Source: Centroscyllium fabricii
Taxonomy: Eukaryota
Assembly: GCA_051313645.2 (NCBI GenBank)
Contig: JBNRSN020000065.1
Span: 372,001-436,000, forward strand
DNA length: 64,000 bases
Reading direction: 5' to 3'
The position numbers and the translations under genes were made by a program. Below the pieces are notes generated by a model, which saw only the letters and a program-made list of their open reading frames with translations, was not told the origin of the DNA and did no database searches. How positions within the stretch are numbered: position 1 is the stretch's first letter; every line of letters starts with the position of its first letter. This document shows positions 14,941 to 57,136 of the stretch, piece by piece.

Positions 14941-15133
14941 CCGCCAATCAGAGAAGGAGTAGCTGATCTGCCAATCAGAGAGGGAGTAGCTGGTCTGCCA
15001 ATCAGAGAGGGAGAGGCGGGTCTGTCAATCAGAGAGGGAGAGGCGGGCCTGTCAATCAGAGAGGGAGAGCCGGGGCTGTCAATCAGAGTGTGAGGGGCTA
15101 GGCTGTCAATCAGAGAGGGAGGGGCGGGGCTGT
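14941..15133 (+). repeat. 27-bp promoter minisatellite (7 units) upstream of V5
   Basis: Unit CTG(T/C)CAATCAGAGAGGGAGGGGCGGGG, ending just before CATCACTTCC. Confidence 0.92.
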
Positions 15134-15265
15134 ACAAATCTCCATCACTTCCTCACGCTCTTCATGTGTTCCTCAGTGATTTGAATAGTGCAGTTTGGAT
15201 CCTCACAAGACACAACTCTGCTGTTGTCACTCCGTTAATTATTAAGAGAACAGCTCCAGTAAAAT

Positions 15266-15770
15266 ATGTATCTGTTCCTCGGTCTGATGATGTTGTTTCA
15301 CCGTAAGGGACAATTTCAAAAATTAATTCTTGTTAATAGTTTTTCTTTACATCTTCTATCTTTCTTTCTATATTTCTTTCTGTCTTTCTCTATTTCTTTC
15401 TTTCTTTCTTTCTTTCTCCATTGCCACGAATGCTCCTATTTACTGACCTCCACCTCTGCCTGTCGTTTGCCCAGACGTGAACTCGCAGACCATCCGCCAG
15501 ACTCCCGCCGCTGTCTCCAAATTTCCTATGGATGAAGTGGAACTGAAGTGCACTGTGGAGGGAGCAAGTATCCCTTACATGTACTGGTACAGGCAATACC
15601 CGGGAACGGAGCCGCAGTTGATGTTTATCTCCCTAACTGTACAAAGCGTAACTGCAGAGGGGACGGTGGAGAGTTTTACCGCCGAGCGACCGAATGGCAA
15701 CGAGTTCAACCTGAAGTCCTCCAGCCTGCGGGCGAATCACTCGGCCGTGTATTACTGCGCCTGGAGTCTG
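15266..15770 (+). CDS. TRBV: TRBV30-like V segment V5; leader 15266-15302, V exon 15475-15770
   Basis: Leader MYLFLGLMMLFH then c|gtaagg; SQTIRQTP...CTVEGASIPYMYWYRQ...YYCAWSL. Confidence 0.92.
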
Positions 15771-15809
15771 CACAGTGACTCAGAGAGATGGAGGAGCTCA
15801 ACAAAAACC
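15771..15809 (+). other. 23-RSS of V5 (consensus)
   Basis: CACAGTG, 23 nt, ACAAAAACC. Confidence 0.97.
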
Positions 15810-16984
15810 CCAAAGGCGGCAGGAAACACCTGTATAATTCAAAACCGCGCGTTGCTTTCTCCCGCTGTGTTGTGTTTTACTGAGCGAACGTGTTTCTGAG
15901 ACGCGTTAGAAGAGAAATGGGAGAGTAGATATAAAGGCACCGGAGAAGGTGCAAAGAAAGTTTAAGTTAGATATAGTGTAGAATGACTGAATGAAAAGTA
16001 GATATAGATAAAAAAAAGGAATAGATATCAAGAACAAAACAGGGATGGAAAGAAAGAGAGAACGAGAGAAGGACAATTAGAATGGCAGAAAGAAGGATAG
16101 AACGAGAGAAAGACGGACATAAAGCAGAGAATCTGTGGATTTTACACACTGACAAAGTGTTTTAATTCTCCGCGGGGATAGCAGAAGGCGCTCTTAGAAC
16201 AGGAAACACAGTTTATTGAATGTTTGTCACCGGGACACCTGCCTCATGTCGGCGCTTTCAGCATCTGTTGGCAACGGTTTAGCCGCTTCTCTATCAGATT
16301 CCAGGGGACCTTTGGTGTGTTTTTTCAAAGAAGCTGCGTATTCAGCGCAGCAAAGATTTAACCCTTGAATTCTCGTTCAGCGCACAGGAACTGAAACCTC
16401 CACTGCCTGAAACAGGAAAGCATTTTCTCCCAACAATGTTGCGCGTCATACAGAAACCTACAATCGTACAGCTCAGAAGGAGGCCATTCGTCCCATCGAG
16501 TCTGTGCCGCCTCTTTGAAAGATTTACCCAAAGAGTCTCTAACGGCTTTAACCCACCCTCTTCGATAACACCCATCAACTTGTCCATCTACCCCATCCTC
16601 CCTCACATACGTATCTAACTTCCGCTCAAATGTATTTATGCCCCTTCGCTCAACCACTCCATGTGGTATCAAGCTCTACATTATCAGCACACTTTGGCTG
16701 GAGATATTATTCCTGAATTCTGTTATATATTTATTAGTGCTTATCTTATATTTGTGAGCCCTTGTTTTGATCGCTCCTATAAATGTAGTCTCACTAACCT
16801 GCTCATTCACCATAGCCCATGGTTGTTTTCATTATTTTTCAAGTTTTTATCCAATTCCCTTTTGTAAGTTATTATTGAATCTGCTTTGCACTGCCCCTTC
16901 AGGCAATGAATTCCACATTATAAGAACTCTCGGCATAATAAAATGTATGTTTCCTCATCTCCCGCTGGTTCTTTTGCCAATTAT

Positions 16985-17810
16985 AGGGAGTATAGATAGA
17001 CTAAGAGAGTGGGCATTAAATTGGCAGATGGAGAATAATGTAGTGAAATGTAAGGTTATTCACTTTGGTAGGAAGAATAGAAAAACAGAATAATTTTTAA
17101 ATGGTGAGAAACATTCAAATGTTAGCGTTCAGAGGGATTTGGGTATCCTCATGCAAGTAACAGCGAAAGGGAGCATGCAGGTTCAGCAAGCAATAAGGAA
17201 GGAAAATGGCATTGAAAGGTTTTTGGAGTATAACAGTAAGGAAGTCTTGCTACAATTGGACAGGGCCTTGGTGAGATCACACCTGGAGTACTGGGCACAT
17301 TTTTGTTCTCCTTTTCTAAGGCTTATCGAAGCGCTGCAACGAAGGATCATTAGATTGATTTCTGTGATGAGAGATTGTGTAGAATTGGTCTATACTCTCT
17401 GGAGTTTTGAAGAATGAGAGATGAACTTATTGAAACAAAACGAATACTGAAGAGAATTCACAGGGTAGATGCTGAAAGGTTGTTTCTCCTGATTGGAGTG
17501 TGTAGAACTAGGGGGCATAGTCTCAGGATAAGGGGTAGTCAATTTGAGACTGAGCCGTGGAGACATTTCTTCAAACAGGGAGCTGTGAATCTTTGAGATT
17601 CTCTACTCCAGAGGGCCGTGAATGCTGAGCTTTTGAGTATATTCAAGGCTGAGATAGATAGAAGTTTGGACTCTAGGGGAATCAATGAATGTGGAGATGG
17701 GGCAGGAAATTCTACTAGACGTCGATGATCAGCCATGATCTTATTGACTGGCGGAGCAGACTCGAGGGGCCTATGTCTTAATCCTGCACTTATTTCTATG
17801 TTCGTATGCT
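16985..17810 (+). mobile_element. Degraded CR1 LINE 3' part (copies near 33712, 42205, 58972)
   Basis: WQMENNVVKCKVIHFG, LVRSHLEY and RTRGHSLRIRG motifs. Confidence 0.85.
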
Positions 17811-18112
17811 CTTATCTTAAGTCTGTGTGATCTAATTTTCTAACAACCTGTCAGTGGATATAGTTCCCCCCTATCAACTCTCTCAAAGCCCTACATGATT
17901 TTGAACACACCTATTAATTCTCTCCTTGACCTTCTGTGCTGCACGGCTCTATGACGGAATGGGATGGAGCGTGGCTTACGTAGGAAGTGACGTAAGAGTG
18001 ACAATTGCAAACGGACGCTTCGTATTTAGTCAGATCCAACGAGAGGGTGCCTTTAAACGTGGTATTGAGCGACACCCGATCACATAGCGAGCCAATGTCG
18101 AATGAATAAACC

Positions 18113-19027: not shown

Positions 19028-19065
19028 CACAGCGTTTGAGAAAGCGGCTCCCCGATATAAAAACT
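19028..19065 (+). other. Variant RSS of V6 (22-bp spacer, altered nonamer)
   Basis: CACAGCG, 22 nt (one C fewer than V1, V12 and V16), ATAAAAACT. Confidence 0.85.
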
Positions 19066-19365
19066 TGCAACTGATGAATGGGAGTTCAGTGCTCACTTTC
19101 CGCCACCAGCTGGCAGCACCAGGCATTCTTCAGTGCTTCCTTTCTGCTTCGCTCCGTCCCCTGCTCTGCTCCCCCCGATCCTACTCCTCCCTGTCCCGCC
19201 CCTCGCATCCCCTATTCCCTCCTCTCCCCACTTCGCATTAAATGATTGGGGGCAAGATGGTGAGGCGCGTCGTCTGAAGTTATACGTCATCCCTGCCCTT
19301 CAACAAGTAACTGATCCGTGTATTTGCGGAAGGATCAGGAGGTGGAGAGCGAGATGGAAGTGTGT

Positions 19366-19908: not shown

Positions 19909-20109
19909 TCATGGGACCACTGTCTGAGTCTGGCGGTCAGCTCTGCTCAGCGCACGTTTAACTTGCAATGCAGTTTGGTTCAAAATAGAGAAAGTGAGAG
20001 AGAAAGAGGGAAACAGAAACAGAAGCAGAAGATAGGAGCACGAGTAGGCCATTCGGCCCTTCGAGCCTGCTCCGCCATTCAATGCGATCATGGCTGATCA
20101 TCATGGTGA

Positions 20110-21269: not shown

Positions 21270-21449
21270 ATTGGCAAACACGTCGATTGCGATTGGTTGA
21301 ACTGGAGAGAGGAAGCTTGTCCTTGCCTCTATTACTTGTTTCTATTCATGTTTTCCTCAATGATTTGAGAAATGCGGGTTTAATCCTCTGAAAACTCCAC
21401 GCTCCTGGTCTCGCCCATCACATATTAAACACAAACCTTAAAATAAATG

Positions 21450-21486
21450 ATGTATGTGTCACTGGGCCTAATGATCTTGCTTCACC
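21450..21486 (+). pseudogene. Relic family-B leader exon with dead splice donor and no V exon
   Basis: MYVSLGLMILLH then c|ATaagg where functional copies have c|GTaagg. Upstream sequence matches the family-B 5' region; a pyrimidine-rich tract follows, then LINE debris. Confidence 0.75.
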
Positions 21487-22376
21487 ATAAGGCAGCTTTC
21501 TGAAAAATAATTATTGTTAATAACCTCCATTTATTTCTTAATTTTCCCTCACTCTTTCTTTCATTCTGTCTGTCTCTCTTTCTTTCTCTCTGTTTTCTGA
21601 GTGACGTGATAGAGATCTTTACAATTATGAAAGGGGTTCGATAGGTTCGATCCAGAGCAAATATTTGCAGTGTTGGATGAGCAGAACTTTTCTCCTGTTA
21701 ATTATGGGAAGACCGAATTCATTGTTTTCGATCCATGCCACGAATTCCGTTCCCTAGTCGCTGACACCATCCGTCTCCCTATCCGCTGACACCATCCGTC
21801 TCCCTAGCTTCGGTCTGAGGCTGAAACAGACTATAGGAAAACTTGATGTCACATTTGACCCTGAAATGAGCTTCCGACCACATATCCGTGCCATAACTAA
21901 GGACTCCTGTTTCCTAGTTTAATATCAAATGCCGAACAGGAGAGGAACACACAGCCCTGCACGGCCGCTCCGCCACTTAACTGGATTATAACTTACCTAT
22001 ATCTTACCTCAATCAACCAGACTTTACTCCATGCTCCGCGACACCCTAACCCGAATGAAATCTATTAATCTCTGTCTTGAAAACTTCGATTGACCCCCCA
22101 GCATCCGCAGCCTTTCATGAGAGAGTGTTAAGAATTCCACTACCCTTTGAGTGGAGAGGTGCACCAGTCTTTGAGGGCGAGCACGCAGGTGCAACAGGCG
22201 GTTAAGAAGGCAAATGGTATGTTGGCCTTCATATCAAGAGGGTTCGAGTATAGGAATACGGATACCTTACTGCAGCTGCACAAGGCACTGGTGAGACCAC
22301 ACCTTGAGTATTGTGTACAGTTTTGGTCGCCTCATCTGATGAACGATGTTCTTGCCATGGAAGGAGTGCAGCGGCG

Positions 22377-23626: not shown

Positions 23627-23820
23627 CCGCCAATCAGAGAAGGAGTAGCTGGTCTGCCAATCAGAGAGGGAGAGGCGGGTCTGTCAATCAGAGAGGGAGA
23701 GGCGGGTCTGTTAATCAGAGAGGGAGAGGCGGGGCTGTCAATCAGAGAGGGAGAGCCGGGGCTGTCAATCAGAGCGGGAGGGGCGGGGCTGTCAATCAGA
23801 GAGGGAGGGGCGGGGCTGTT
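23627..23820 (+). repeat. 27-bp promoter minisatellite (7 units) upstream of V7
   Basis: Same unit, counted directly. Confidence 0.92.
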
Positions 23821-23951: not shown

Positions 23952-24490
23952 ATGTATTTGTTCTTGGGACCAATGATCTTGTTTCACTGTAAGGAACTAT
24001 TGCAAAAATTATTTTTTTGAATATATTTTCTTTATATTTCATTTCTTTCATCCTTCCATTCTTTCTTTCTTTCTTTCTTTCTTTCTTTTTCTCTTTCTTT
24101 TTCTCTTTCTTTCTTTCTTTTTTACTTTCTTTCTTCTGCATGTCCCCGAGTGTCCCAATTTACTGACCTCCTCCTCTCCCTGTCTCTTACCTAGATGTGA
24201 GCTCGCAGACTATCCGCCAGACTCCCGCCGCTGTCTCCAGATATCCCGGGGATCGAGTGGAACTGAAGTGCGATGTCAAGGGCACTAGTACCCCGACTAT
24301 TTACTGGTACAGACAATACCCGGGGAAGGAGCCGCAGACCATGTTTTCCTCCACGGTTACCAATGTCGTGAATCCAGAGGAGCCGGTGGACGGTTTTACC
24401 GCCGAGCGACCGAATGGCAACGAGTTCAACCTGAGGTCCTCCAGCCTGCGGGCGAATCACTCGGCCGTGTATTACTGCGCCTGGAGTCTG
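23952..24490 (+). CDS. TRBV: TRBV30-like V segment V7 (open frame, defective RSS heptamer); leader 23952-23988, V exon 24195-24490
   Basis: Leader MYLFLGPMILFH then t|gtaagg; acceptor tag|at; ends YYCAWSL. Confidence 0.88.
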
Positions 24491-24529
24491 CGCAGTGACT
24501 CAGAGAGATGGAGGAGCTCAACAAAAACC
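24491..24529 (+). other. 23-RSS of V7 with CAC changed to CGC
   Basis: CGCAGTG, 23 nt, ACAAAAACC. Confidence 0.9.
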
Positions 24530-26470: not shown

Positions 26471-26900
26471 TCTGTTAACACGAAGATGACGCATTTTATT
26501 CCTACTGTTGGTTCCATAACGCTTGACACCCTTACTTAACAATAATCTGTCCATGTATATATTGAAACCTCCTGTTGATCTGCAGCTTCAACAATAATTT
26601 GGGAGGGAGAAGTCCAGAATTCCCGAAGTACTCCAGTTGGAATCTGACCAGAGGGTTATACACCTGGAGGATAACTTCCTCCGCACTTTGAGATAGAAGC
26701 CAGCATTCCTTTAGGCTTCCACTGTTCCTGGCTGACCGCCAGATGGACAATATTCCGATCCCTCATACTTAGGTGTACAGGGGTTGGTCTGACGCATGCC
26801 CACATTAAACTCCATTTCCCAGTGCCAATGCTTTGCTCGGAAACGGAATCTTTCTCTGCCCACACAGCAGCACGGAGCTCCTATCCACTCTGCGTATTGG

Positions 26901-27823
26901 CTGTCAAGAGGGAGAGGCCGGGCTGTCAATCAGAGAGGGAGGGCGGGGCTGTCAATCAGAGAGAGAGGGGCGGGTCTGTCAATCAGTGTGGGGGCGAGAC
27001 TGTCAATCAGAGAGAGAGGGGCGGGTCTGTCAATCAGAAAGGGAGGGGCGGGACTGCCAATCAGAGAGGGAGAGGCAGGTTTGATAATCAGAGAGGGAGG
27101 GGCTGGGCTGTCAATCAGAGAAGGAGGGGCGGGACTGTCAATCAGAGAGGGAGGGGCGGGACTGTCAATCAGAGAGGGAGGGGCAGGACTGTCAATCAGA
27201 GAAGGAGGGGCGGGACTGTCAATCAGCGAGGGAGGGGCAGCGCTGTCAATCAGAGAGCGAGGGGCGGAGCTGTCAATCAGAGAGGGAGGGGCGGGGCTGT
27301 CAATCAGAGAGCGAGGGGCGGGGCTGTCAATCAGAGAGGGAGGGGCGGGGCTGTCAATCAGAGAGGGAGGGGCAGGGCTGTCAATCAGCGAGGGAGGGGC
27401 AGCGCTGTCAATCAGAGAGCGAGGGGCGGGGCTGTCAATCAGAGAGGGTGGGGCGGGGCTGTCAATCAGAGAGGGAGGAGCGGGACTGTCAATCAGAGAG
27501 GGAGGGGCAGCGCTGTCAATCAGAGAGGGAGTGGCGGGGCTGTCAATCAGAGAGGGAGGGGCGGGGCTGTCAATCAGAGAGGGAGGGGCGGGACTGTCAA
27601 TCAGAGAGGGAGGGGCAGCGCTGTCAATCAGAGAGGGAGGGGCGTGGCTATCAATCAGAGTGGGAGGGGCGGGGCTGTCAATCAGAGTGGGAGGGGCGGG
27701 ACTGTCAATCAGAGAGGGAGGGGCAGCGCTGTCAATCAGAGAGGGAGTGGCGGGACTGTCAATCAGAGAAGGAGGGGAGAGGCTGACAATCGGGGAGGGG
27801 GTGTGGCGGGACTGTCAATCAGA
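26901..27823 (+). repeat. Large 27-bp minisatellite (about 34 units) with no adjacent V gene
   Basis: Tandem CTGTCAATCAGAGAGGGAGGGGCGGG(G/A). Confidence 0.95.
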
Positions 27824-28900: not shown

Positions 28901-29171
28901 GTGTCAATCAGAGAGGGAGTAGCTGGTCTGCCAATCAGAGAGGGAGTAGCTGGTCTGCCAATCAGAGAGGGAGTAGCTGGCCTGCCAATCATAGAGGGAG
29001 TCGCTGGTCTGCCAATCAGAGAGGGAGTATCTGGTCTGCCAATCAGAGAGAGAGAGGCGGAACTGGCAATCAGAGAGGGAGGGGCGGGGCTGTAAATCAG
29101 AGAGGGAGGGGCTGGGCTGTCAATCAGAGAGGATGGGGCTGGAATGTCAATCATAGAGGGAGGGACTGGAC
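28901..29171 (+). repeat. 27-bp promoter minisatellite (10 units) upstream of V8
   Basis: Same unit, followed by CACGTCACTT. Confidence 0.92.
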
Positions 29172-29307
29172 TTTCCAATACCACGTCACTTGCTTGTGCT
29201 CATCATGTTTTGCTCAATGATTTGAAAAGTGCGGTTTGGATCGTCAGAAAACACAATTCACCTGTTCTCGCTCCTTTCATTCTTGTAGGAAATTCTTCCA
29301 GTAAAAG

Positions 29308-29411
29308 ATGGATCTGTTACTGAGTCTAATGATCTTGTTTCATTGTAAGGAACTATTTCAAATATTAACTGTTGTTAATCTACTTTCTTTACGTTTTCTT
29401 TGTTTTCTGTT

Positions 29412-29466
<55 letters not shown>

Positions 29467-29863
29467 CTCCTTCTTTCTTTCTTGCTTCCATACTTCATTT
29501 TTCCTGCTAGATTTCCCCGAATGGCTCTGTTTACTGACCTCCTTCTCTCTCCCTGTCTCTTTCCCAGACGTGAGCTCGCAGACTATCCGCCAGACTCCCG
29601 CCGCTGTCTCCAGATATCCCGGGGTTGGGGTAGAACTGAAGTGCGATGTGAAGGGCACCAGTAACCCGAATATGTTCTGGTACAGACAATACCCAGGGAA
29701 GGAGCCGCAGTTTATGTTTTACTCCATCGGTACCAATGCCGTGAGTCCAGAGGGGCCGGTGGACGGTTTTACCGCCGAGCGACCGAATGACAACGCGTTC
29801 AACCTGAATTCCTCCAGCCTGCGGGCGGATCACTCGGCCGTATATTACTGCGCCTGGAGACTG
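29308..29863 (+). CDS. TRBV: TRBV30-like V segment V8; leader 29308-29344, V exon 29568-29863
   Basis: Leader MDLLLSLMILFH; CDVKGTSNPNMFWYRQ...FYSIG...YYCAWRL. Confidence 0.92.
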
Positions 29864-29902
29864 CACAGTGACTCAGAGAGATGGAGGAGCTCAACAAAAA
29901 CC
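29864..29902 (+). other. 23-RSS of V8 (consensus)
   Basis: CACAGTG, 23 nt, ACAAAAACC. Confidence 0.97.
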
Positions 29903-31595: not shown

Positions 31596-31870
31596 CTGCC
31601 AATCAGAGAGGGAGTAGCTGGGCTGCCAATCAGAGAGGGAGTAGCTGGGCTGCCAATCAGAGAGGGAGTTGCTGGGGTGTCAATCAGAGAGGGAGTATCT
31701 GGACTGCCAATCAGAGAGAGAGAGGCGGGACTGCCAATCAGAGAGGGAGGGGCTGGGCTGTCAATCAGAGAGGGAGGGGCTGGGCTGTCAATCAGAGAGG
31801 GAGGGGCGGAGCTGTCAATCAGAGAGGGAGGGGCTGGGCTGTCAATCAGAGAGGGAGGGGCGGGGCTGTA
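31596..31870 (+). repeat. 27-bp promoter minisatellite (10 units) upstream of V9
   Basis: Same unit. Confidence 0.92.
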
Positions 31871-32001: not shown

Positions 32002-32090
32002 ATGTGTCTGCGCCTAGGCCTGATGATGTTGTTTCACCGTAAGGGACACTTTCAAAAATTAATTCTTGTTCATAGTTTTTCTTTACATCT

Positions 32091-32121
<31 letters not shown>

Positions 32122-32502
32122 CTATTTCTTTCTTTCTTTCTTCCTTACTCCATTGCCACGAATGCTCCTGTTTACTGACCTCCACCTCTGCCTGTCTTTT
32201 TCCCAGACGTGAACTCGCAGACCATCCGCCAGACTCCCGCCGCTGTCTCCAAATTTCCTATGGATGAAGTGGAACTGAAGTGCACTGTGGAGGGAGCAAG
32301 TATCCCTTACATGTACTGGTACAGGCAATACCCGGGAAGGGAGCCGCAGTTGGTGTTTATCTCCCCAACTGTACAAAGTGTGACTGCAGAGGGGCCGGTG
32401 GACGGTTTTACTGCCGAGCGACCGAATGGCAACGAGTTCAACCTGAAGTCCTCCAGCCTGCGGGTGGATCAGTCGGTCGTGTATTACTGCGCCTGGAGTC
32501 TG
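32002..32502 (+). CDS. TRBV: TRBV30-like V segment V9; leader 32002-32038, V exon 32207-32502
   Basis: Leader MCLRLGLMMLFH then c|gtaagg; intact V domain, close paralog of V5. Confidence 0.9.
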
Positions 32503-32541
32503 CACAGTGACTCAGAGAGATGGAGGAGCTCAACACAAACC
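32503..32541 (+). other. 23-RSS of V9
   Basis: CACAGTG, 23 nt, ACACAAACC. Confidence 0.93.
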
Positions 32542-34889: not shown

Positions 34890-37274
34890 GTAAGTCAAAA
34901 TAACAAACTTACGCAGAGGTCTTTGTAGAATAATATATTTAATGTCAGCTGTGGTTCAGCTGGTAGAAACCTTTGCCTCTGAATCACAGGTTTTGGTTTG
35001 CAGTCTTACTCCTGAAACTTGGGAACAAAATCAATGCTGACACACCCGAGACCAGCACGGAGGGAGAGCTGGACTTTCAGAGGTGCCGTCTTTCAGATGA
35101 GGCCTTTAAACCAGCTCAGGTGGAGGTAAATGATCCCAGGACACTATTGGAAGGAGAGCACGTTTGGGATGCCGACGTTAGATACCATACATAGTGTATG
35201 CAAGCTGATCCCACATTATAACCCTTTCAGCCCTGCTATCGTTCTGGTGAATCTTTGTCTCTCTCCTTCCAGGGTCGGTGTATCCTTCCATAGGTGCTGT
35301 GCCCAGAACTGAACACAGTGTTCCAGAGTCTGACCCTGGCTCTGTGCAACCGAAGCATAACTTCCTCCCTTTTGTATTTCAGTCACCTTGGCAGAAAGGC
35401 CAACTTTGCATTTGACGTTTGATTCATTTATTATCAGCTGTGGCTCAGTGGGTAGCACACTCACCTCGGAGTCAGAATGCTGCGTGTTCAGAATCCCACT
35501 CCAGGGACTTGAGCACACGAAGCTTGGCGGACGCTCCAGTACAGTGCTGAGGGAGCGCTGCAATGTCGGAGGAGCCGTCTTTCGGATGAGATGTTAATCC
35601 GAGGCCGCGTCTGCTCTCTGAGGTGGATGTAGAAGATCCCATGGCACTATGTCGAAGATGAGCAGGGGAGGTATCCGCGATGTCCTGGCCAATATTTATC
35701 CCTCAACCAACGACACACAAACAGTAAATTGCGCCTGGTCCTGGCTGGGGTGGAGATCACATCTTACAGAATGTAGAAATGACAAAAACCCAAAACAAAC
35801 TAGATTGTTATTTGGCCCTAAACAGACAGTATGCCATGGCTGATTACCTGTCCATGGTGAAAGATAGCAAACTGAGAAAAACCCTGACAATATACAGACT
35901 TAGCGAGCACAGCCTAGCCATCGAAAAAGGCAGACACAGAAAGACTTGGCTGCCCAGAGAGGAAAGGCTGTGCTCCCACTGCAGTCAGGGAGTGTTGGAG
36001 ACAGGGCTGCATTTCCTCACAACTTGCGAAAACTATCAGGGAATAAGGGGAAATTTCTTCCCAAAATTTGTAACAACATGCCCTGAATTCAAAAATTTGA
36101 ACGACCACCAAAAACTCCCATATCTATTGGGGGAACAGAGGGACTGTATAAACTTAGCGGCAAACTACGTCACAGCTTGCCATAAGCAGAGGGACAACCA
36201 GTGACCATTGAAGCTAGGAAGAGCATACAAGCTCTATATGCGGGTATATATGTATGTGTTTGCATAGTTATTCATTCAATACGTCTGGTTATGCATTTGT
36301 ATGTCCAATTGTATATGTTCTTTTTCTGTGCTTTAGCAACATAGGATGTATCTTGTCATGCCAATAAAGCAATTTGCATTGAATTGAATTGAGTTGCTGC
36401 AGGAAATTCAGGGCCAGAGTGATATCCTGGAGGAATTTCGATCGTCTGGATGGGTCGGAGAGGAGTTCCCCAGATTCTTTCCCCGAATTGGCCACTGGGT
36501 GTTTAATCTGGTTTTTCGCCTCTCCCGGGAGATCGCATGGTTTCCGGTGGGATGGGGGGGGGGGGGGTGAAAGTAGATTTGAGGTGAAAATCAGATCAGC
36601 CATGATCTTATTGAATGGCGGAGCGGGCTCGAGGGGCCGATTGGCCTACTCCTGCTCCTATTTCTTATGTTCTTATGTTCCTATCACAACAGTGACTCCA
36701 GTTCAAAAGTACGTCATTGTTTGTAAAGCGCGTTGAAACATCCAGTGGTCCTGAATGGCGCGATATCGATGCAAGTCTTTCTTAAATACAAGACTTTCGT
36801 TTTGCGCGTGTCGCCTGGCTTTTAGTGATTTGTGTACTTAAACAATGAGTTACCTTTGCTACTTCACAGTTGCTAGCTTCTCACTGGGTGCAAAATATTC
36901 TGATCTTTCTTCCTTAGGCCCACCGTGGCTGACCTCATAATTGCCCACCTTAAATTCCACCTGCCACTATTTCTCTCTCCTTCACGTAGCCTGTTTAGGC
37001 CACCTTTGCAACCTCCTGTTCTCATCTGCTGTACCTGTGGCCAATCGGAGAGTGAGGAGGCGGGTCTGTCAGTCAGCGTGAGAGGGGCGTGTGTGTAAAC
37101 CCGCCTGGGAGTGAAGGAGCGGTGCTGTCAATCAGAGAGCGAGGAGCCAGCGTCACTTCCTTCCGCCCGTCATGGTTTCCTGAATGACATGAAAAGAACG
37201 CGTTGGATCGTCACAAGATTTAACGTTCGTATTTTCGCTTATTTCATTGCGAAAAGTAAATTTCCAAGTTAAAG

Positions 37275-37777
37275 ATGTATTTGTTGCTGAGTTTCATAGT
37301 CCTCTTTCAAAGTAAGTTATACTTTGAAACAATAATCTTTGTTAATAATCTTTCTTTACTTTTTCTTTCCTTCCCTCGTTGGTTCCTTCATTCTTTATTT
37401 ATTCCTTTATTTCCTTATTTCTTTCCTCACAACCCAAATGCTCTGACTACTGACCTCCTCCTCTCCCTGTCTCTTTCTCAGATGTGAACTCGCGGACCGT
37501 CCGCCAGATTCCCGCCGCTGTCTCCAGGTTTACTCGGGAAGGAGTCGAACTAAAGTGCGCCGTGGAGGGCGCCAGTAGCGGTGGCATGTGCTGGTACCGA
37601 CAGGACCCGGGGAAGGGGCCGCAGTTGATGTTTTCCTCCCCTGTTGTACAAAGCGTGAATCCAGAGGGGGCGGGGGACGGTTTTACCGCCGAGCGACCGA
37701 CGGGCAACGAGTTCAACCTGAAGGCCTCCCGTCTGCGGGCGGATCACTCGGCCATGTATTACTGCGCCTGGAGTCTT
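37275..37777 (+). CDS. TRBV: TRBV30-like V segment V10 (duplicate of V4); leader 37275-37311, V exon 37482-37777
   Basis: Nearly identical to V4 at an offset of 25084; open frame. Confidence 0.9.
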
Positions 37778-37816
37778 CACAGTGACTCAGGGAGATGGAG
37801 GAGCTCAACAAAAACC
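37778..37816 (+). other. 23-RSS of V10
   Basis: CACAGTG, 23 nt, ACAAAAACC. Confidence 0.97.
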
Positions 37817-40022: not shown

Positions 40023-40297
40023 CCGCCAATCAGAGAAGGAGTAGCTGATCTGCCAATCAGAGAGGGAGTAGCTGGTCTGCCAATCAGAGAGGGAGAGGCG
40101 GGTCTGTCAATCAGAGAGGGAGAGGCGGGGCTGTCAATCAGAGAGGGAGATGCGGGTCTGTCAATCAGAGAGGGAGAGGCGGGGCTGTCAATCAGAGAGG
40201 GAGAGCCGGGGCTGTCAATCAGAGAGGGAGGGGCGGGGCTGTCAATCAGAGAGGGAGAGGCGGGCTGTCAATCAGAGAGGGAGGGGCGGGGCTGTTC
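40023..40297 (+). repeat. 27-bp promoter minisatellite (10 units) upstream of V11
   Basis: Same unit. Confidence 0.92.
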
Positions 40298-40427: not shown

Positions 40428-40987
40428 ATGTATTTGTTCTTGGGACCAATGATCTTGTTTCACTGTAAGGAACTATTGCAAAAATTAATTTTTGTGAATA
40501 GATTGTCTTTANNNNNNNNNNNNNNNNNNNNNNNNNNNNNNNNNNNNNNNNNNNNNNNNNNNNNNNNNNNNNNNNNNNNNNNNNNNNNNNNNNNNNNNNN
40601 NNNNNNNNNNNNNNNNNNNNNNNNNNNNNNNNNNNNNNNNNNNNNAGTGTCCCAATTTACTGACCTCCTCCTCTCCCTGTCTCTTACCTAGATGTGAGCT
40701 CGCAGACTATCCGCCAGACTCCCGCCGCTGTCTCCAGATATACCGGGGTTGGGGTGGAACTGAAGTGCGATGTCAAGGGCATCAGTACCCCGACTATTTA
40801 CTGGTACAGACAATACCCGGGGAAGGAGCCGCAGACCATGTTTTTCTCCACGGTTACCAATGTCGTGAGTCCAGAGGGGAGGGTGGACGGTTTTACTGCC
40901 GAGCGACCGAATGGCGACGAGTTCAACCTGAATTCCTCCAGCCTGCGGGCAGATGACTCGGCCGTGTATTACTGCGCCTGGAGTCTG
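40428..40987 (+). CDS. TRBV: TRBV30-like V segment V11 (mosaic); leader 40428-40464, V exon 40692-40987; intron contains an N-gap
   Basis: Leader MYLFLGPMILFH; intact V exon ending YYCAWSL; Ns at 40512-40645. Confidence 0.9.
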
Positions 40988-41026
40988 CACAGTGACTCAG
41001 AGAGATGGAGGAGCTCAACAAAAACC
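40988..41026 (+). other. 23-RSS of V11
   Basis: CACAGTG, 23 nt, ACAAAAACC. Confidence 0.97.
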
Positions 41027-46517: not shown

Positions 46518-46697
46518 ATTGGCAAACACGTCGATTGCGATTGGTTGAACTGGAGAGAGGAAGCTTGTCCTTGCCTCTATTACTTGTTTCTATTCATGTT
46601 TTCCTCAATGATTTGAGAAATGCGGGTTTCCTCCTCAGAAAACTGCACGCTCCTGGTCTCGCCCATCACATATTAAACACAAACCTTAAAATAAATG

Positions 46698-46734
46698 ATG
46701 TATGTGTTACTGGGCCTAATGATCATGCTTCACC
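46698..46734 (+). pseudogene. Relic family-B leader (copy 2), donor GT changed to AT, no V exon
   Basis: atgtatgtgttactgggcctaatgatcatgcttcacc|ataagg. Confidence 0.72.
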
Positions 46735-47624
46735 ATAAGGCAGCTTTTTGAAAAATAATTAATGTTAATAACCTCCATTTATTTCTTAATTTTCCCTCAC
46801 TCTTTCTTTCATTCTGTCTGTCTCTCTTTCTTTCTCTCTGTTTTCTGAGTGACGTGATAGAGATCTTTACAATTATGAAAGGGGTTCGATAGGTTCGAGC
46901 CAGAGCAAATATTTGCAATGTTGGATGAGCAGAACCTTTCTCCTGTTAATTATGGGAAGACCGAATTCATTGTTTTCGATCCATGCCACGAATTCCTTTC
47001 CCTAATCGCTGACACCATCCGTCTCTCTATCCGCTGACACCATCCGTCTCCCTAGCTTCGGTCTGAGGCTGAAACAGACTATAGGAAAACTTGATGTCAC
47101 ATTTGACCCTGAAATGAGCTTCCGACCACATATCCGTGCCATAACTAAGGACTCCTGTTTCCTAGTTTAATATCAAATGCCGAACAGGAGAGGAACACAC
47201 AGCCCTGCACGGCCGCTCCGCCACTTAACTGGATTATAACTTACCTATATCTTACCTCCATCAACCAGACTTTACTCCATGCTCCGCGACACCCTAACCC
47301 GAATGAAATCTATTAATCTCTGTCTTGAAAACTTCGATTGAGCCCCCAGCATCCGCAGCCTTTCATGGGAGAGTGTTAAGAATTCCACTACCCTTTGAGT
47401 GGAGAGTTGCACCAGTCTTTGTGGGCGAGCACGCAGGTGCAACAGGCGGTTAAGAAGGCAAATGGTATGTTGGCCTTCATATCAAGAGGGTTCGAGTATA
47501 GGAATAAGGATACCTTACTGCAGCTGCACAAGGCACTGGTGAGACCACACCTTGAGTATTGTGTACAGTTTTGGTCGCCTCATCTGATGAACGATGTTCT
47601 TGCCATGGAAGGAGTGCAGCGGCG

Positions 47625-48874: not shown

Positions 48875-49068
48875 CCGCCAATCAGAGAAGGAGTAGCTGG
48901 TCTGCCAATCAGAGAGGGAGAGGCGGGTCTGTCAATCAGAGAGGGAGAGGCGGGTCTGTTAATCAGAGAGGGAGAGGCGGGGCTGTCAATCAGAGAGGGA
49001 GAGCCGGGGCTGTCAATCAGAGCGGGAGGGGCGGGGCTGTCAATCAGAGAGGGAGGGGCGGGGCTGTT
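48875..49068 (+). repeat. 27-bp promoter minisatellite (7 units) upstream of V13
   Basis: Same unit. Confidence 0.92.
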
Positions 49069-49199: not shown

Positions 49200-49307
49200 A
49201 TGTATTTGTTCTTGGGACCAATGATCTTGTTTCACTGTAAGGAACTATTGCAAAAATTATTTTTTTGAATATATTTTCTTTATATTTCATTTCTTTCATC
49301 CTTCCAT

Positions 49308-49339
<32 letters not shown>

Positions 49340-49742
49340 TTTCTCTTTCTTTTTCTCTTTCTTTCTTTCTTTTTTACTTTCTTTCTTCTGCATGTCCCCG
49401 AGTGTCCCAATTTACTGACCTCCTCCTCTCCCTGTCTCTTACCTAGATGTGAGCTCGCAGACTATCCGCCAGACTCCCGCCGCTGTCTCCAGATATCCCG
49501 GGGATCGAGTGGAACTGAAGTGCGATGTCAAGGGCACTAGTACCCCGACTATTTACTGGTACAGACAATACCCGGGGAAGGAGCCGCAGACCATGTTTTT
49601 CTCCACGGTTACCAATGTCGTGAATCCAGAGGGGCCGGTGGACGGTTTTACCGCCGAGCGACCGAATGGCAACGAGTTCAACCTGAGGTCCTCCAGCCTG
49701 CGGGCGAATCACTCGGCCGTGTATTACTGCGCCTGGAGTCTG
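49200..49742 (+). CDS. TRBV: TRBV30-like V segment V13 (duplicate of V7, defective heptamer); leader 49200-49236, V exon 49447-49742
   Basis: Open frame, two amino acids different from V7. Confidence 0.88.
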
Positions 49743-49781
49743 CGCAGTGACTCAGAGAGATGGAGGAGCTCAACAAAAACC
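49743..49781 (+). other. 23-RSS of V13 with CAC changed to CGC
   Basis: CGCAGTG, 23 nt, ACAAAAACC. Confidence 0.9.
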
Positions 49782-52152
49782 CCAAAGGCGGCAGGAAACA
49801 CCTGTAGATGGTGAAACCGCGCGGGGCCGCGTCCTGTTGGGTTTATTTTACAGAGCGAACGTGCGTCTGACAAGAAGAGGAGAGGGTTTAGATTTAAAGT
49901 GACAGTTTAGATATCGAGGCACTGGAGACAGTGCAATGAATGTTTAACGACGATGATAGCAGCACTGAGAGGATATATCTATCAGGAAAGGCTGAAGAGG
50001 CTGGGGGTCCTTTTATTATCACAGAGAAGACCAGGAGGTGACCTGCTAGAAGCCTTTAAAAATATGAAGGAGATTCAGTTTACATCTAGTAATAATTGCT
50101 GCCCCTTGTTTAAGACAGGGTTTAAGAAATCCAAAGGGAAGTCAGGAAAAACACCTTTACATAGAGAGTGGAGATAATTCGGAAATCACTATCACAGCGT
50201 GTGTTTGAGGCGTAGAGCATATGTGAATTTTAGAGGTAGCTGAATAATTGCATGACAGAGAAAGGAATAAAAGGTGATGTTGATAGGACACAACATCCAT
50301 CCTTACTGGGGTGAAGTGTTGAGCACATTCAGTTAGCAGAGGGGAAGGATCTAAACAGGTGAAACTGCTTCTGACCAAAACAAATAAAATTATCAAATGC
50401 AAATAAGAAAGAAAGATAGATAGATAGACAGAATGAAGGAAAGAAAGGGAGAAAGAATGCAACGAAGAAAGAAAGAAAACAAGAAAGGTACAAGGAAAGT
50501 AGAAAACATATTCGATTCTTGTACACCAGCAATGTGCTTCCTGTCTCCACAGGGGTAATAGAGGGCCCTCCTGGACCAGGATACCCACCAGTGCCTGTAA
50601 CATGGTTTAATCGGAACAGGCGGAGGCAATTCAACCACCTCGAGCCATTCCGCAATTCAACCAGATCATGGTTGATCTGTACTTTAACTCAGTTTACCCA
50701 CGATGAACATAAGAGCATTAGAAATAGTAAATGGAGTAGGCCATTCAGCCCTTCGAGCCTGCCCCTGCATTCACTGAGATCACGGCTGATGTCCTACCCC
50801 AACTCCGTATCCCGTCTTATCTCCATACCCCTTAATTCCCTTACAATCCAAAAATCTATCGGTCTCTTTTTTGAATAGATTCAACGACTGAACCTTCAAA
50901 CCCCTCTGAGGTAGAGAATTGCAAAGATTTACCGCCCTCTGAGTGAAGAACTTTCTCCTCTTCTCAGTCCGAAATGGCCGACCGCTTCTTCTGAGACTAG
51001 GACCGCTAGTTTTAGACTCTCCAGTCAGGGGAACGTCCTGTCAGCATCCACCCTGTCAAAACTCCTAATGATTTACGTGTTTCCATGAGATCACCCATCG
51101 TTCTTTCAATTCTAGGGAATATAGGCCGTGTCTGTTCAATCTCTCCTCATAGGACAATCCCCCATCTCAGGAATCGGTTTAGCGAATCTTCGTTGCACTC
51201 CCTCTAAGGCAAACACATCCTTCCTTAGGTAAGGAGACAGAAACTGTACACAGGAATCAAGGTGTGGTCTCACCAAGTCGCTATATAATTGCAGTAAGCC
51301 TTCTTTACTCTTATACTGCAATCATTTAGTAATAAAGGCCAACATACCATTTATTTCCTAATTGCTTCCTGTACCTGCATGTTAACTTGCTGTGATTTGT
51401 GTACCAGGACTCCCAGGTCCCTCTGAACACCAAGATTTCCCAATCGCTCACCATTTAAAAAACACTCTGCCTTTCTATTTTCCTACCAAAGTGGTTGAAT
51501 CGACTTTATGTTCCATCTTCCAGGATCTTGCCCACTTACTCACCCTGTCTATAGCGATTTGTAGCCTCTTTGCGTTCCCCTCAAAAGTTACTTTGGCACA
51601 GAGACTTGCATCGTCAGCAATCTTCGATATATTACACTGAGCCCCGCCACTTAAGTCATTGATTAAGATTGTAAATAGAGGTGGCCCAAGCATTGATCCT
51701 TGTGGTACCCCAATGATTACAGTCTGTTAACACGAAGATGACGCATTTTATTGCTACTGTTGGTTCCATAACGCTTGACACCCTTACTTAACAATAATCT
51801 GTCCATGTATATATTGAAACCTCCTGTTGATCTGCAGCTTCAACAATAATTTGGGAGGGAGAAGTCCAGAATTCCCGAAGTACTCCAGTTGGAATCTGAC
51901 CAGAGGGTTATACACCTGGAGGATAACTTCCTCCGCACTTTGAGATAGAAGCCAGCATTCCTTTAGGCTTCCACTGTTCCTGGCTGACCGCCAGATGGAC
52001 AATATTCCGATCCCTCATACTTAGGTGTACAGGGGTTGGTCTGACGCGTGCCCACATTAAACTCCATTTCCCAGTGCCAATGCTTTGCTCGGAAACGGAA
52101 TCTTTCTCTGCCCACACAGCAACACGGAGCTCCTATCCACTCTGCGTATTGG

Positions 52153-53048
52153 CTGTCAAGAGGGAGAGGCCGGGCTGTCAATCAGAGAGGGAGAGCGGGG
52201 CTGTCAATCAGAGAGAGAGGGGCGGGTCTGTCAATCAGTGTGGGGGCGAGACTGTCAATCAGAGGGAGAGGGGCGGGTCTGTCAATCAGAAAGGGAGGGG
52301 CGGGACTGCCAATCAGAGAGGGAGAGGCAGGTTTGATAATCAGAGAGGGAGGGGCTGGGCTGTCAATCAGAGAAGGAGGGGCGGGACTGTCAATCAGAGA
52401 GGGAGGGGCGGGACTGTCAATCAGAGAGGGAGGGGCAGGACTGTCAATCAGAGAAGGAGGGGCGGGACTGTCAATCAGCGAGGGAGGGGCAGCGCTGTCA
52501 ATCAGAGAGCGAGGGGTGGAGCTGTCAATCAGAGAGGGAGGGGCGGGGCTGTCAATCAGAGAGCGAGGGGCGGGGCTGTCAATCAGAGAGGGAGGGGCGG
52601 GGCTGTAAATCAGCGAGGGAGGGGCAGCGCTGTCAATCAGAGAGCGAGGGGCGGGGCTGTCAATCAGAGAGGGAGGGGCGGGGCTGTCAATCAGAGAGGG
52701 AGGAGCGGGACTGTCAATCAGAGAGGGAGGGGCAGCGCTGTCAATCAGAGAGGGAGTGGCGGGGCTGTCAATCAGAGAGGGAGGGGCGGGGCTGTCAATC
52801 AGAGAGGGAGGGGCGGGACTGTCAATCAGAGAGGGAGGGGCAGCGCTGTCAATCAGAGAGGGAGGGGCGTGGATGTCAATGAGAGTGGGAGGGGCGGGGC
52901 TGTCAATCAGAGAGGGAGGGGCGGGACTGTCAATCAGAGAGGGAGGGGCAGCGCTGTCAATCAGAGAGGGAGTGGCGGGACTGTCAATCAGAGAAGGAGG
53001 GGAGAGGCTGACAATCGGGGAGGGGGTGTGGCGGGACTGTCAATCAGA
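52153..53048 (+). repeat. Large 27-bp minisatellite (about 33 units), duplicate of 26901-27823
   Basis: Same unit; no V gene immediately downstream. Confidence 0.95.
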
Positions 53049-54126: not shown

Positions 54127-54398
54127 GTGTCAATCAGAGAGGGAGTAGCTGGTCTGCCAATCAGAGAGGGAGTAGCTGGTCTGCCAATCAGAGAGGGAGT
54201 AGCTGGCCTGCCAATCATAGAGGGAGTCGCTGGTCTGCCAATCAGAGAGGGAGTATCTGGTCTGCCAATCAGAGAGAGAGAGGCGGAACTGTCAATCAGA
54301 GAGGGAGGGGCGGGGCTGTAAATCAGAGAGGGAGGGGCTGGGCTGTCAATCAGAGAGGATGGGGCTGGAATGTCAATCAGAGAGGGAGGGACTGGACT
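54127..54398 (+). repeat. 27-bp promoter minisatellite (10 units) upstream of V14
   Basis: Same unit. Confidence 0.92.
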
Positions 54399-54533
54399 TT
54401 CCAATACCACGTCACTTGCTTGTGCTCATCATGTTTTGCTCAATGATTTGAAAAGTGCGGTTTGGATCGTCAGAAAACACAATTCACCTGTTCTCGCTCC
54501 TTTCATTCTTGTAGGAAATTCTTCCAGTAAAAG

Positions 54534-55101
54534 ATGGATCTGTTACTGAGTCTAATGATCTTGTTTCATTGTAAGGAACTATTTCAAATATTAACTGTTG
54601 TTAATNNNNNNNNNNNNNNNNNNNNNNNNNNNNNNNNNNNNNNNNNNNNNNNNNNNNNNNNNNNNNNNNNNNNNNNNNNNNNNNNNNNNNNNNNNNNNNN
54701 NNNNNNNNNNNNNNNNNNNNNNNNNNNNNNNNNNNTTTTTCCTGCTGCATTTCCCCGAATGGCTCTGTTTACTGACCTCCTTCTCTCTCCCTGTCTCTTT
54801 CCCAGACGTGAGCTCGCAGACTATCTGCCAGACTCCCGCCGCGGTCTCCAGATATCCCGGGGTTGGGATAGAACTGAAGTGCGATGTGAAGGGCACCAGT
54901 AACCCGAATATGTTCTGGTACAGACAACACCCAGGGCAGGAGCCGCAGTTTATGTTTTACTCCATCGGTACCAATGCCGTGAGTCCAGAGGGGCCGGTGG
55001 ATGGTTTTACCGCCGAGCGACCGAATGACAACGCGTTCAACCTGAATTCCTCCAGCCTGCGGGCGGATCACTCGGCCGTGTATTACTGCGCCTGGAGTCT
55101 G
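54534..55101 (+). CDS. TRBV: TRBV30-like V segment V14 (duplicate of V8); leader 54534-54570, V exon 54806-55101; intron contains an N-gap
   Basis: Open frame with an extra FR1 Cys (SQTICQTP); Ns at 54606-54735. Confidence 0.9.
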
Positions 55102-55140
55102 CACAGTGACTCAGAGAGATGGAGGAGCTCAACAAAAACC
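55102..55140 (+). other. 23-RSS of V14
   Basis: CACAGTG, 23 nt, ACAAAAACC. Confidence 0.97.
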
Positions 55141-56834
55141 CCAAAGGCGGCAGGAAACACCTGTGGATGGTGAAACCGCGCGGGGCCGCGTCATTTTGGG
55201 TTTTATTTACAGAGCGAATGTGATTTTGACAAGAAGAGATGTGACAGTATAAGATTGAGTGATTAGATATAGAGGTACTGGAGGAGGTGAAAATAAATAT
55301 TTACAATGATGACACCAGAACTGAGAGGCTGTAACTGTCATGAAAGGCTGGACGGGTTATGGCTCCTTTCTCTACAGAAGATAATACCGAGGGATGTCCT
55401 GATAGAGTTCTTTATAATTATGACAGATTTTCCATAGAGCAGACGCAGAGAAGATATTAACATTTTTGTGGAAGATCAAAACTAGTGGCCTTATATATGA
55501 GATAATCACCAATAACTCCAGTAGGAGATGCACCAGACTCGTTCTTACCCAGAGATGCGGAACTCGCTACCACAGGGAGTAGTTGAGGTGAAAATCACAG
55601 ATACAGTGAAGGGAAAGCGGGATAAGCACCGGAGGGAGAGAGGGATAGAAGGGAATGCTGATCGTGTCCAATATCAACCCATCCTGTGCTGAATTACTGA
55701 GCACATTCCGTCAGCAGATACCAGCACATTCCGCGGGAGGTGAAACTGGTTCAGACCCCGAAACAAATAAAATATTAACAAATACAAAAACGAAATATAG
55801 ATAGAAATAATGAATGAATGAAAGAAAGTATAATGATTGTTGGATTTTTTCCACTGATGATGTGTTGTCTTTGTTCACTGGCCCGGTGTTTTCTTTCTCC
55901 ACAGGGACAGCAGAGCGCGCTCTAGGACCATGAACCCCACCAGTTCCTGGAACATGGTTTTGTCGGAGCAGGAGGATGCCATTCAGCCCCTCGAGCCGCT
56001 CCGCCATTCAATCAGATCATGGCTGATCTGAAACTTAACTCAATTTACCCACATTTGTTCGCTAACTCTTCACACCCTTAGATAATGGAAATCGAAGTTT
56101 TGAAATCTCCCGTTGAACTCTGGCCTCAACTGCAATTTGGGCGAATGATTTGCGGTTTTTCATTATCCTTTGTGTCAAGAGGTGACTCCAGATCTGACCC
56201 TTGATCGGATTCGCTTTAATGCTCAACTGATGCCCGCTAGCTCCGGACTGCCCCTCGCCAGAGGGGATACCTTCTCTCTATCTACAGTCTCCAATGGCTT
56301 TTCCAGTTACAACACCTCAGTAGCATCACTGCTCAATCTTCTATACTCAATGGAATACAAGCCTAGTCTATGTAATCTCTGCTCATAATAACCTCACTAA
56401 GCCCCGGTATCATTCTGGTAAATCCGCATTGCACACCCACCAAGGCCAATATATCCTTCCTGAAGTGTGTTGCTCAGAACTGAACGTCCTGTTCCAGATG
56501 GAGCCTGACCAGACTCTGTACAACTGAAGCATAACTTTCTCTCCTCTGTATTCCAGCACCCAGCAGATAAAGGCCAATATTTCATTAGACGTTTTGGTTT
56601 TTGTACCTGTCCACTGGCCGAGAGTGATTTGTGTAGCTTGACATCTAAATCACTTTGCACCTCCACAGTTCTCAGCTTTTCACCATTTAGAATATATTCT
56701 GATCTCTCTTTCTTAGGTTGGCAGCGGATGATCTCACACTTGCCCACATTAAGCTCCATCAACCTCTGTTTTGCTCATTCATTTAAATTGTTTGTGTCCC
56801 CTTTGCATCACTCATCTCCCGTCTGCACTAATTA

Positions 56835-57136
56835 CTGCCAATCAGAGAGGGAGTAGCTGGGCTGCCAATCAGAGAGGGAGTAGCTGGGCTGCCAATCAGA
56901 GAGGGAGTAGCTGGGCTGCCAATCAGAGAGGGAGTAGCTGGGGTGTCAATCAGAGAGGGAGTATCTGGACTGCCAATCAGAGAGAGAGAGGCGGGACTGC
57001 CAATCAGAGAGGGAGGGGCTGGGCTGTCAATCAGAGAGGGAGGGGCTGGGCTGTCAATCAGAGAGGGAGGGGCGGGGCTGTCAATCAGAGAGGGAGGGGC
57101 TGGGCTGTCAATCAGAGAGGGAGGGACGGGGCTGTA
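56835..57136 (+). repeat. 27-bp promoter minisatellite (11 units) upstream of V15
   Basis: Same unit; one more copy than its duplicate upstream of V9. Confidence 0.92.

Follow-up and report, generated by a model that had tools for sequence, protein, structure and literature searches.

Promoters of antigen-receptor V segments contribute to the choice of segment for rearrangement, and outside mammals little is understood about the evolution of V usage. In the mouse, a V-beta promoter drives long-range recombination. Mammalian TRBV promoters carry CRE motifs ca. 80-120 bp upstream; the consulted passages of PMC2685407 describe no tandem upstream array for them, and our literature searches found no description of a minisatellite array of the present kind at antigen-receptor V promoters. 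The closest described structures come from other settings. Promoter VNTRs, including eVNTRs (Bakhtiari et al., PMC8024321), resemble the arrays reported here as start-site minisatellites of variable length with factor motifs in their units. At an antigen-receptor locus, HS1.2 of the IgH 3' regulatory region (PMC11275349) contains a repeated module, and the more copies of it there are, the more SP1 and other sites are predicted. Regulatory sites of zebrafish and mammals are known to combine TALE decamers with CCAAT boxes and SP/KLF motifs, and the DECA-CCAAT composite of TALE, NF-Y and Sp2 (bioRxiv 10.64898/2026.02.16.706105; Ladam et al., PMC6023610) shares with our locus closely spaced perfect decamers and CCAAT boxes with GC-box-like sequence nearby. 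Finally, MORC3-restricted homotypic-cluster tandem repeats (PMC13373173) comprise tens of copies of a single motif, a size range that includes our 33- and 34-unit orphan arrays. Here, we analyze a stretch of 64,000 nucleotides from Centroscyllium fabricii (henceforth termed the window), in which arrays of a 27-bp unit precede ten V genes.

Results

The 64 kb of the window represent a V cluster of an elasmobranch TCR-beta locus and hold 16 V exons, each with a 23-RSS, in tandem with their leaders. V4 and V5 match the Pfam V-set family; a Chiloscyllium plagiosum V-J-C gene model is 64% identical to V7 and has a TCR beta chain as its best PDB match (E 6.6e-45), and the nurse shark beta-V2/V3 primer peptides YVEQSP and AVYYCAC occur in family A. 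Rfam gave no match across the window. As to the likeness of family B to TRBV30, proposed in the initial annotation, the features seen were a CAW ending and PDB matches to the Mel5 beta chain, which we take to use TRBV30.

Ten family-B genes, all on the forward strand, retain a V exon. V4 (12191..12732) comprises leader, intron, V exon and 23-RSS in an open frame, and frames are also open in V5 (15266..15809) and V8 (29308..29902), both with a canonical 23-RSS, in V9 (32002..32541) and V15 (57268..57803), each with one change in the nonamer, in V10 (37275..37816), and in V7 (23952..24529) and V13 (49200..49781), whose heptamers start with CGC, so that very low recombination is predicted for them. 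V11 (40428..41026) and V14 (54534..55140) contain intronic assembly gaps (40512-40645 and 54606-54735, respectively). RSS quality varies among these genes. Three relics consist of a family-B core promoter and leader, likewise in forward orientation: one with a broken splice donor and no V exon (21334..21509) and two further copies (46582..46757 and 63346..63521).

The initial annotation had assigned a tandem array to every family-B gene, which holds for the ten with a V exon and fails for the three relics, all of which lack an array. Our recount returned the same unit numbers on the forward strand: seven at V5 (14943..15131; three CCAAT units, then four decamer units), V7 (23629..23817) and V13 (48877..49065, a duplicate of the V7 array); ten at V8 (28903..29172), V9 (31598..31867), V11 (40025..40293, with one unit of 26 bp) and V14 (54129..54398, a duplicate of the V8 array); and eleven at V15 (56837..57133), a duplicate of the V9 array plus one unit. 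About four degenerate units precede V4 (11956..12069), in the order CCAAT unit, variant decamer, decayed unit and perfect decamer, and V10 (37040..37153), whose array duplicates that of V4. The previously described spacing also stood: in all eight clean arrays, 11 bp separate the end of the last unit from a TCACTT element and 135-136 bp separate it from the ATG. At V4 and V10 the array end overlaps the TCACTT element, 122 bp before the ATG. Family-A leaders and V3 have no array upstream, as had been reported, and no real 27-bp unit was found on the minus strand of the window. These are head-to-tail units at a constant place upstream of a gene, as in a promoter minisatellite. No canonical G-quadruplex pattern with loops of up to 12 bases was present in any of the eight arrays examined.

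Motifs within the unit were called by consensus matching. The perfect CTGTCAATCA decamer occurs 90 times in the window, where 0.32 occurrences are expected, and only 2 of 300,000 shuffled units contained it. Among 72 promoter units, 31 are of CCAAT type, 36 of decamer type and five of neither, i.e., one of the two sites is kept in 67. A single base decides whether a unit reads as CCAAT box or as PBX-PREP decamer, and hence no unit has both. A perfect GC box, GGGGCGGGG, is found in 11 of the 72 units, and none combines CCAAT with GGGCGG. The three motifs named in the initial annotation thus do not all occur in each unit. Within promoter arrays, CCAAT units lie distally and decamer units proximally, and at least two CCAAT units occur in each of eight promoter arrays, compared with 1/34 and 1/33 units in the two orphan arrays described below. 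The degenerate arrays of V4 and V10 retain a CCAAT box and a decamer. Both parts of the DECA-CCAAT composite, the perfect decamer and the CCAAT box, are thus available; a search for their canonical geometry (GAnnGAC-N9..13-CCAAT) gave no match on either strand.

Motif columns carry four of 34 inferred substitutions (37.5% expected; p ~0.001) when compared with all other non-CpG columns, and the difference persists with one array per lineage (p 0.0035). Against the purine spacer alone it is not significant (p 0.09-0.21). The signal is due mainly to rapid change at the G-run positions, and a G-run is likewise variable in an unrelated 33-bp minisatellite. It also appears in one orphan array, O1 (p ~0.01), but is not significant with both orphans pooled (p 0.08-0.12).

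These orphans, O1 (26898..27823; 34 units, nearly all of decamer type, ca. 1.1 kb 5' of the V8 array) and its duplicate O2 (52150..53048; 33 units), both in forward orientation, are the two largest arrays of the locus and had been omitted from the initial annotation despite lying inside its span. Together they carry 58 of the 90 perfect decamers. Neither is followed by a core promoter, a leader or a V exon, and blastn (O1 only), nhmmer and tblastn recovered no concealed V or promoter remnant there. As an indirect probe of dispersal, translations of the orphan array were searched in three frames, none of which gave a close match: in the first, none of 8,000 scored candidates matched at E 1e-5; the second gave 511 matches at E 0.001, of which the 150 listed were at most 40% identical, i.e., compositional; and in the third, Atlas scores did not exceed 0.84. 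Such blanks are weak evidence, since non-coding repeats seldom enter protein sets, and the absence of matches to the unit in prokaryotic genome contigs is uninformative for a shark repeat.

All arrays derive from one ancestral promoter that was multiplied by segmental duplication. A 5'-truncated reverse-transcriptase remnant of a CR1-type LINE, on the minus strand, adjoins the V5 array (14405..14949), and the same type of remnant flanks V4, V7, V8 (where 40 bp remain), V9, V10, V11, V13, V14, V15, O1 and O2, giving one common flank for all 12 arrays within the window. The flanks of V4, V5, V9 and O1 form a single clade against four other CR1 copies (support 99/98). The remnant at O1 (26692..26889, minus strand) matches the V-promoter flanks in clade and register, which rules out O1 and O2 as independent insertions. 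The link between array and V gene is consequently one event, not ten. Duplicates that are 99% identical differ in unit number (10 vs 11; 34 vs 33), and given this common origin and the duplicate pairs, copy number cannot be compared with anything in the window.

A single origin accounts for the whole association and raises the prospect that the minisatellite is a neutral passenger that originated once next to the LINE end, spread with the duplicating V cassettes and was homogenised by exchange. On this view the promoter work would fall to the core element, possibly assisted by the final one or two units, and all other units would be unneeded. We regard this as rather unlikely. In its favor, the longest arrays have no gene, near-identical duplicates differ in copy number, conservation of the motifs relative to the spacer is not significant, and V7 and V13 retain clean arrays despite their CGC heptamers. 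Experience in humans points the same way: only ca. 6% of tested regulatory VNTRs affect expression, and in monocytes most tested motif-rich tandem repeats lack general gene-regulatory activity. Against it stand the rarity of the perfect decamer in random units, the fact that its commonest variant is another promoter motif, the confinement of CCAAT blocks to promoter arrays (8/8) to the exclusion of orphans, the motifs kept in the degenerate V4 and V10 units, and the absence of arrays from relics without a V exon.

The ETS/CRE element downstream of the arrays brings in another reading. At V5, the ETS and CRE-half-site element lies at 15143..15152 on the minus strand; its equivalents start at 12067, 23829, 29184, 31879, 37151, 40305, 49077, 54410 and 57145. 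The element, which had been described for all family-B genes, is whole at V4 and V10; the CRE half-site is gone in six genes and the ETS core in V8 and V14. Clean long arrays thus accompany a damaged element in 8/8 genes and degenerate arrays an intact one in 2/2, a pattern that represents only ca. three independent lineages, and family A combines an intact element with no array. Conceivably, promoter strength, RAG access and V usage depend on unit number and on the mix of CCAAT and decamer units, which might also compensate for a damaged ETS/CRE element. The restriction of gene-linked arrays to 7-11 units, as opposed to 33-34 in the orphans, would fit such tuning, as would the observation that a human VNTR lying no more than 100 bp from a start site is twice as often expression-linked. 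We nevertheless consider it quite improbable. The sequence itself lends it no support: the range of unit numbers is narrow and shifts between duplicates, which is ordinary for a minisatellite, no gene goes with the longest arrays, the cooperative decamer-CCAAT geometry is missing, and V7 and V13 keep clean arrays where very low recombination is predicted. Moreover, RSS quality is a demonstrated determinant of V-beta usage in the mouse, and it differs among the genes studied here; blocking transcription through mouse Trbv1 did not reduce its rearrangement. A fuller version, in which a decaying ETS/CRE element has been replaced by an expandable NF-Y/TALE/Sp minisatellite whose unit number and mix would act as a heritable, fast-mutating dial on germline accessibility and V usage, with the orphans as local enhancers of V8 and V14 and intra-array exchange swapping dials, strikes us as a long shot.

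On the 5' side of its array V5 agrees with V11 at 44/45 informative sites, and from the array end to the RSS with V9/V15 at 89/102 sites; V5 is thus a chimera, V11-like on one side and V9/V15-like on the other, and the switch between the two parts falls within its array. Arrays are also more similar between old paralogs than the adjacent DNA: V8 and V9 are 94% and 85% identical at the array ends, compared with 64% in the 5' flank, 73% in the core promoter and 84% in the V exon, and the modal unit is the same in O1 and the gene arrays, although the flanks are only ca. 60% identical. Exchange between arrays alone could account for this similarity. That the array is chiefly a recombination substrate, shuffling promoters and V exons between paralogs and so aiding expansion of the family, would agree with the V5 switch and with the shared modal unit, yet we hold it to be very improbable indeed: the switch is a single event, a second switch in V11 lies near the RSS, outside the array, and the 25-kb duplication ends at 35160 within a SINE and not in an array. 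Such shuffling is a by-product that agrees with the other readings.

Discussion

We think it reasonably probable that an ordinary CCAAT/TALE/GC upstream promoter segment turned into a minisatellite that likely still serves as an upstream promoter, with a unit number that drifts. Factor binding and promoter activity of the array are plausible from its sequence, because its position is fixed relative to the core promoter, its motifs form a set known to co-occur, the arrays are more alike than their flanks, and the units at V4 and V10 keep their motifs; we also count the lack of arrays at the dead, V-exon-less relics in favor of a promoter role. The array would have originated by tandem duplication of 27 bp of upstream promoter, between the truncated antisense LINE and the ETS/CRE core, in the ancestor from which this V-beta family descends. 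These 27 bp presumably carried a CAATCA core, which one base makes either an NF-Y CCAAT box or a PBX-PREP/MEIS decamer, and after it a G-rich, Sp/KLF-like stretch. Segmental duplication then multiplied the entire cassette of LINE stub, array, core promoter, leader, V and RSS. NF-Y at distal units, and TALE dimers with Sp/KLF at proximal units, would keep the V promoter open, while slippage and unequal exchange would let unit number wander, to 7-11 at genes and 33-34 where the gene was lost, and would also permit recombination between arrays. NF-Y, TALE and Sp factors are broadly expressed, so the array leaves T-cell specificity unexplained; family A is presumably transcribed without one. Having found no literature on Prep1 in thymocytes, we claim no TALE-TCR-beta link.

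With near-identical V genes that carry 7, 10 or 11 units, and with degenerate arrays, relics that lack an array and arrays that lack a gene, the locus forms a natural series for asking if a repertoire depends on the strength of its promoters. Should unit number prove important, it would provide a rapid and heritable route to retune T-cell repertoires; if it is irrelevant, the locus would record how a promoter fragment became a minisatellite and spread by birth-and-death duplication.

Among known systems, the mammalian TRBV CRE decamer, as summarized in PMC2685407, offers a parallel in an AGTGA-containing element ca. 120 bp upstream of the V-beta leader; the family-B element differs in being inverted and only a half-site. 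Unlike eVNTRs (PMC8024321), the shark array is repeated across paralogous V genes, and its length variation is known between gene copies of one assembly, not among individuals. HS1.2 (PMC11275349) is a distal 3' enhancer with one to four copies of a 40-bp module, whereas the shark units number 7-11, measure 27 bp and sit at individual V promoters. The published DECA-CCAAT geometry, GAnnGAC-11 bp-CCAAT (bioRxiv 10.64898/2026.02.16.706105; PMC6023610), is absent from the shark arrays, whose motifs are instead on opposite strands, interchangeable at one position and repeated every 27 bp. The MORC3-restricted repeats (PMC13373173) contain SPI/ETS, AP-1 and SP/KLF motifs and were described in human monocytes; accessibility was predicted to be lower for large clusters than for small ones (PMC13373173), and a higher unit number therefore need not bring higher activity.

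Results

All 16 V exons in the window lie on the plus strand and carry a 23-RSS, in the gene order of the initial annotation. The genes of family B (V4, V5, V7–V11, V13–V15), which end in CAW, have elasmobranch proteins as closest database relatives: V5 is nearest to a Chiloscyllium punctatum protein (63% identity) and V7 to C. plagiosum, Hypanus and Scyliorhinus models (56–66%). One of these models is V-J-C and, among solved structures, matches a TCR beta chain best. Family A contains the nurse shark beta-V2/V3 primer peptides that appear in the consulted part of PMC5931798. We identify the locus as cartilaginous-fish TCR beta. The V7 and V13 heptamers (24491–24497 and 49743–49749) start with CGC, and both frames are open; a CGC-type change is expected nearly to abolish recombination (PMC2193808, in part). 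Because of these heptamers, both genes probably recombine poorly or not at all.

The copy numbers proposed for the 27-bp repeat upstream of the family-B core promoters were reproduced with Tandem Repeats Finder and by scanning for the unit: 7 at V5, V7 and V13, 10 at V8, V9, V11 and V14, and 11 at V15, while V4 and V10 each have about four degenerate units. The spacing also held: in 8/8 clean arrays, 11 bp separate the end of the last unit from the TCACTT core element, and 135–136 bp separate it from the ATG. Family-A leaders and V3 are array-free, as annotated. The PBX-PREP/MEIS (TALE) decamer occurs 90 times in the window against 0.32 expected, always on one strand and within arrays. The inventory, however, had left out two larger orphan arrays, O1 (26898–27823, 34 units) and O2 (52150–53048, 33 units), which together account for 58 of the 90 decamers; neither was found to be followed by a core promoter, leader or V exon.

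A family-B core-promoter profile located three relics (21334, 46582 and 63346), copies of a single one, which retain a leader but have a broken splice donor and no V exon. Up to 1.3 kb upstream of them, no unit rose above background (best 17/27). An inverted-repeat-bounded element of about 720–760 bp lies some 65 bp upstream of each (20547–21269, 45763–46517 and 62524–63281); it may be a non-autonomous DNA transposon that took the array's place. At 34710–35160, a family-A promoter and leader without a V exon are severed at the 25-kb duplication boundary within a SINE; orphan promoters therefore arise here via duplication breakpoints.

Base 2 of the unit decides between two states, an NF-Y CCAAT box or the decamer. 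The 72 promoter units comprise 31 CCAAT-type, 36 decamer-type and 5 of neither type, ordered with CCAAT units distal and decamer units proximal; O1 and O2 have one CCAAT unit apiece. The claimed Sp/KLF GC box is perfect in only 11 promoter units and in no CCAAT unit. TALE decamers, CCAAT boxes and SP/KLF motifs are known to lie near one another (PMC6023610; bioRxiv 10.64898/2026.02.16.706105, both in part), and the latter source gives a cooperative geometry of GAnnGAC-11 bp-CCAAT (orientation per its main text). This geometry was rejected for the arrays, with 0 GAnnGAC-CCAAT matches at spacers of 9–13.

The annotated ETS/CRE element downstream of the array has a full ETS and CRE half-site at V4 and V10 only. 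Elsewhere in family B it is damaged, lacking the CRE half-site at V5, V7, V9, V11, V13 and V15 and the ETS core at V8 and V14. In mammalian TRBV promoters, a CRE motif is found ~80–120 bp upstream (PMC2685407, in part). V2 is preceded by a perfect CRE palindrome (4147–4154), and at V3 (8072–8101) there is a TGATGTCA motif, together with an inverted CRE-like element resembling that of family B. In P0158, a Hypanus sabinus model known from protein only, a linker stretch before a second family-B-like leader might stem from translation of one CCAAT box and a following GC box.

Each array adjoins the truncated, antisense remnant of a CR1-type reverse transcriptase, and RVT_1 was found on a sense copy. 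An array-flank profile matched the flanks of O1 and O2 at E about 1e-21; other LINE copies gave 1e-9 or weaker. In a tree built without the duplicates or the short flanks of V7 and V8, the flanks of V4, V5, V9 and O1 formed one clade against four other LINE copies (support 99/98). Two duplications (10076–21988 vs 35160–47236, 96.7%; 21989–35160 vs 47237–60408, 98.7%) built the window, and together with the common array flank they reduce the ten gene arrays to some four lineages descended from a single ancestral promoter. In 4/12 local alignments of V4, V5 and V9 flanks with LINE copies, similarity reaches the end of the first CCAATC, within 2–4 bases of the place of the complementary word in intact copies; because scores are low, the idea that the LINE donated the first CCAAT, or that there was microhomology where the insertion ended, is no more than a lead. 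Two assembly gaps (40512–40645 and 54606–54735), each in a TTTC microsatellite of a family-B intron, call for caution on repeat assembly. Given these gaps and 99%-plus identity in places, some duplicate pairs could be uncollapsed alleles.

Between V8 and V9, the array ends are 94% and 85% identical, and their surroundings are less similar (5' flank 64%, core promoter 73%, exon 84%). When 32 distinct promoter units were joined in a minimum spanning tree, with switch and CpG columns excluded, the nine motif columns received 4/34 substitutions (p about 0.001); with each lineage represented by one array, they received 4 of 30–31 (p 0.0035). Compared with the spacer alone, they did not differ significantly (p 0.09–0.21). 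O1 alone gave a like pattern (p about 0.01), which was not significant for O1 and O2 combined (p 0.08–0.12). As a control, the G-run also varies in an unrelated 33-bp minisatellite (1760–2737, 3975–4038 and 9399–9949; both strands, one array in the V1 intron). This repeat resembles an amplified fragment of a common shark SINE, putatively HE1. V5 equals V11 at 44/45 informative sites upstream of the array and V9/V15 at 89/102 sites downstream; judged by these site patterns, exchange between arrays is real. V11 (40025–41130) is itself a mosaic, V7-like from the array through the V exon and V5/V9-like from around the RSS onward. The signs of constraint fit selection and homogenisation alike, and a neutral array, unneeded and carried along, is an unlikely though not negligible reading.

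Discussion

The account we favour, with some reserve, is that a promoter fragment became a minisatellite that still serves as upstream promoter while its length drifts over time. NF-Y would occupy distal units, and TALE and Sp/KLF factors proximal ones; we infer both this binding and promoter activity. In mouse, a V-beta promoter is required for locus looping, and rearrangement does not need transcription through the V-beta segment (bioRxiv 10.1101/2024.10.13.618029, in part). Two observations slightly favour the view that unit number sets V usage, which we consider improbable: clean arrays coincide with damaged ETS/CRE elements, and at genes the range is narrow (7–11 units). V-beta use is limited by RSS quality (10.1101/2020.01.20.913046), and accessibility can be lower in large motif clusters than in small ones (PMC13373173; both in part).

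Promoter VNTRs with factor motifs are already known; a link to expression was seen for about 6% of human regulatory VNTRs tested and was twice as frequent near start sites (PMC8024321, in part). Our searches of the open-access literature yielded no title or abstract that describes a minisatellite at V promoters or shark TCR promoters, and the words "promoter" and "minisatellite" are both absent from the shark immunology papers checked, including the consulted part of PMC5931798. The 27-bp V-promoter array is a real, unusual feature. Within an antigen-receptor locus, the IgH HS1.2 enhancer offers a repeat-module precedent (PMC11275349, in part). The KIR hybrid-gene breakpoints described in the relevant part of PMC2816608 lie in Alu and MaLR repeats rather than minisatellites.
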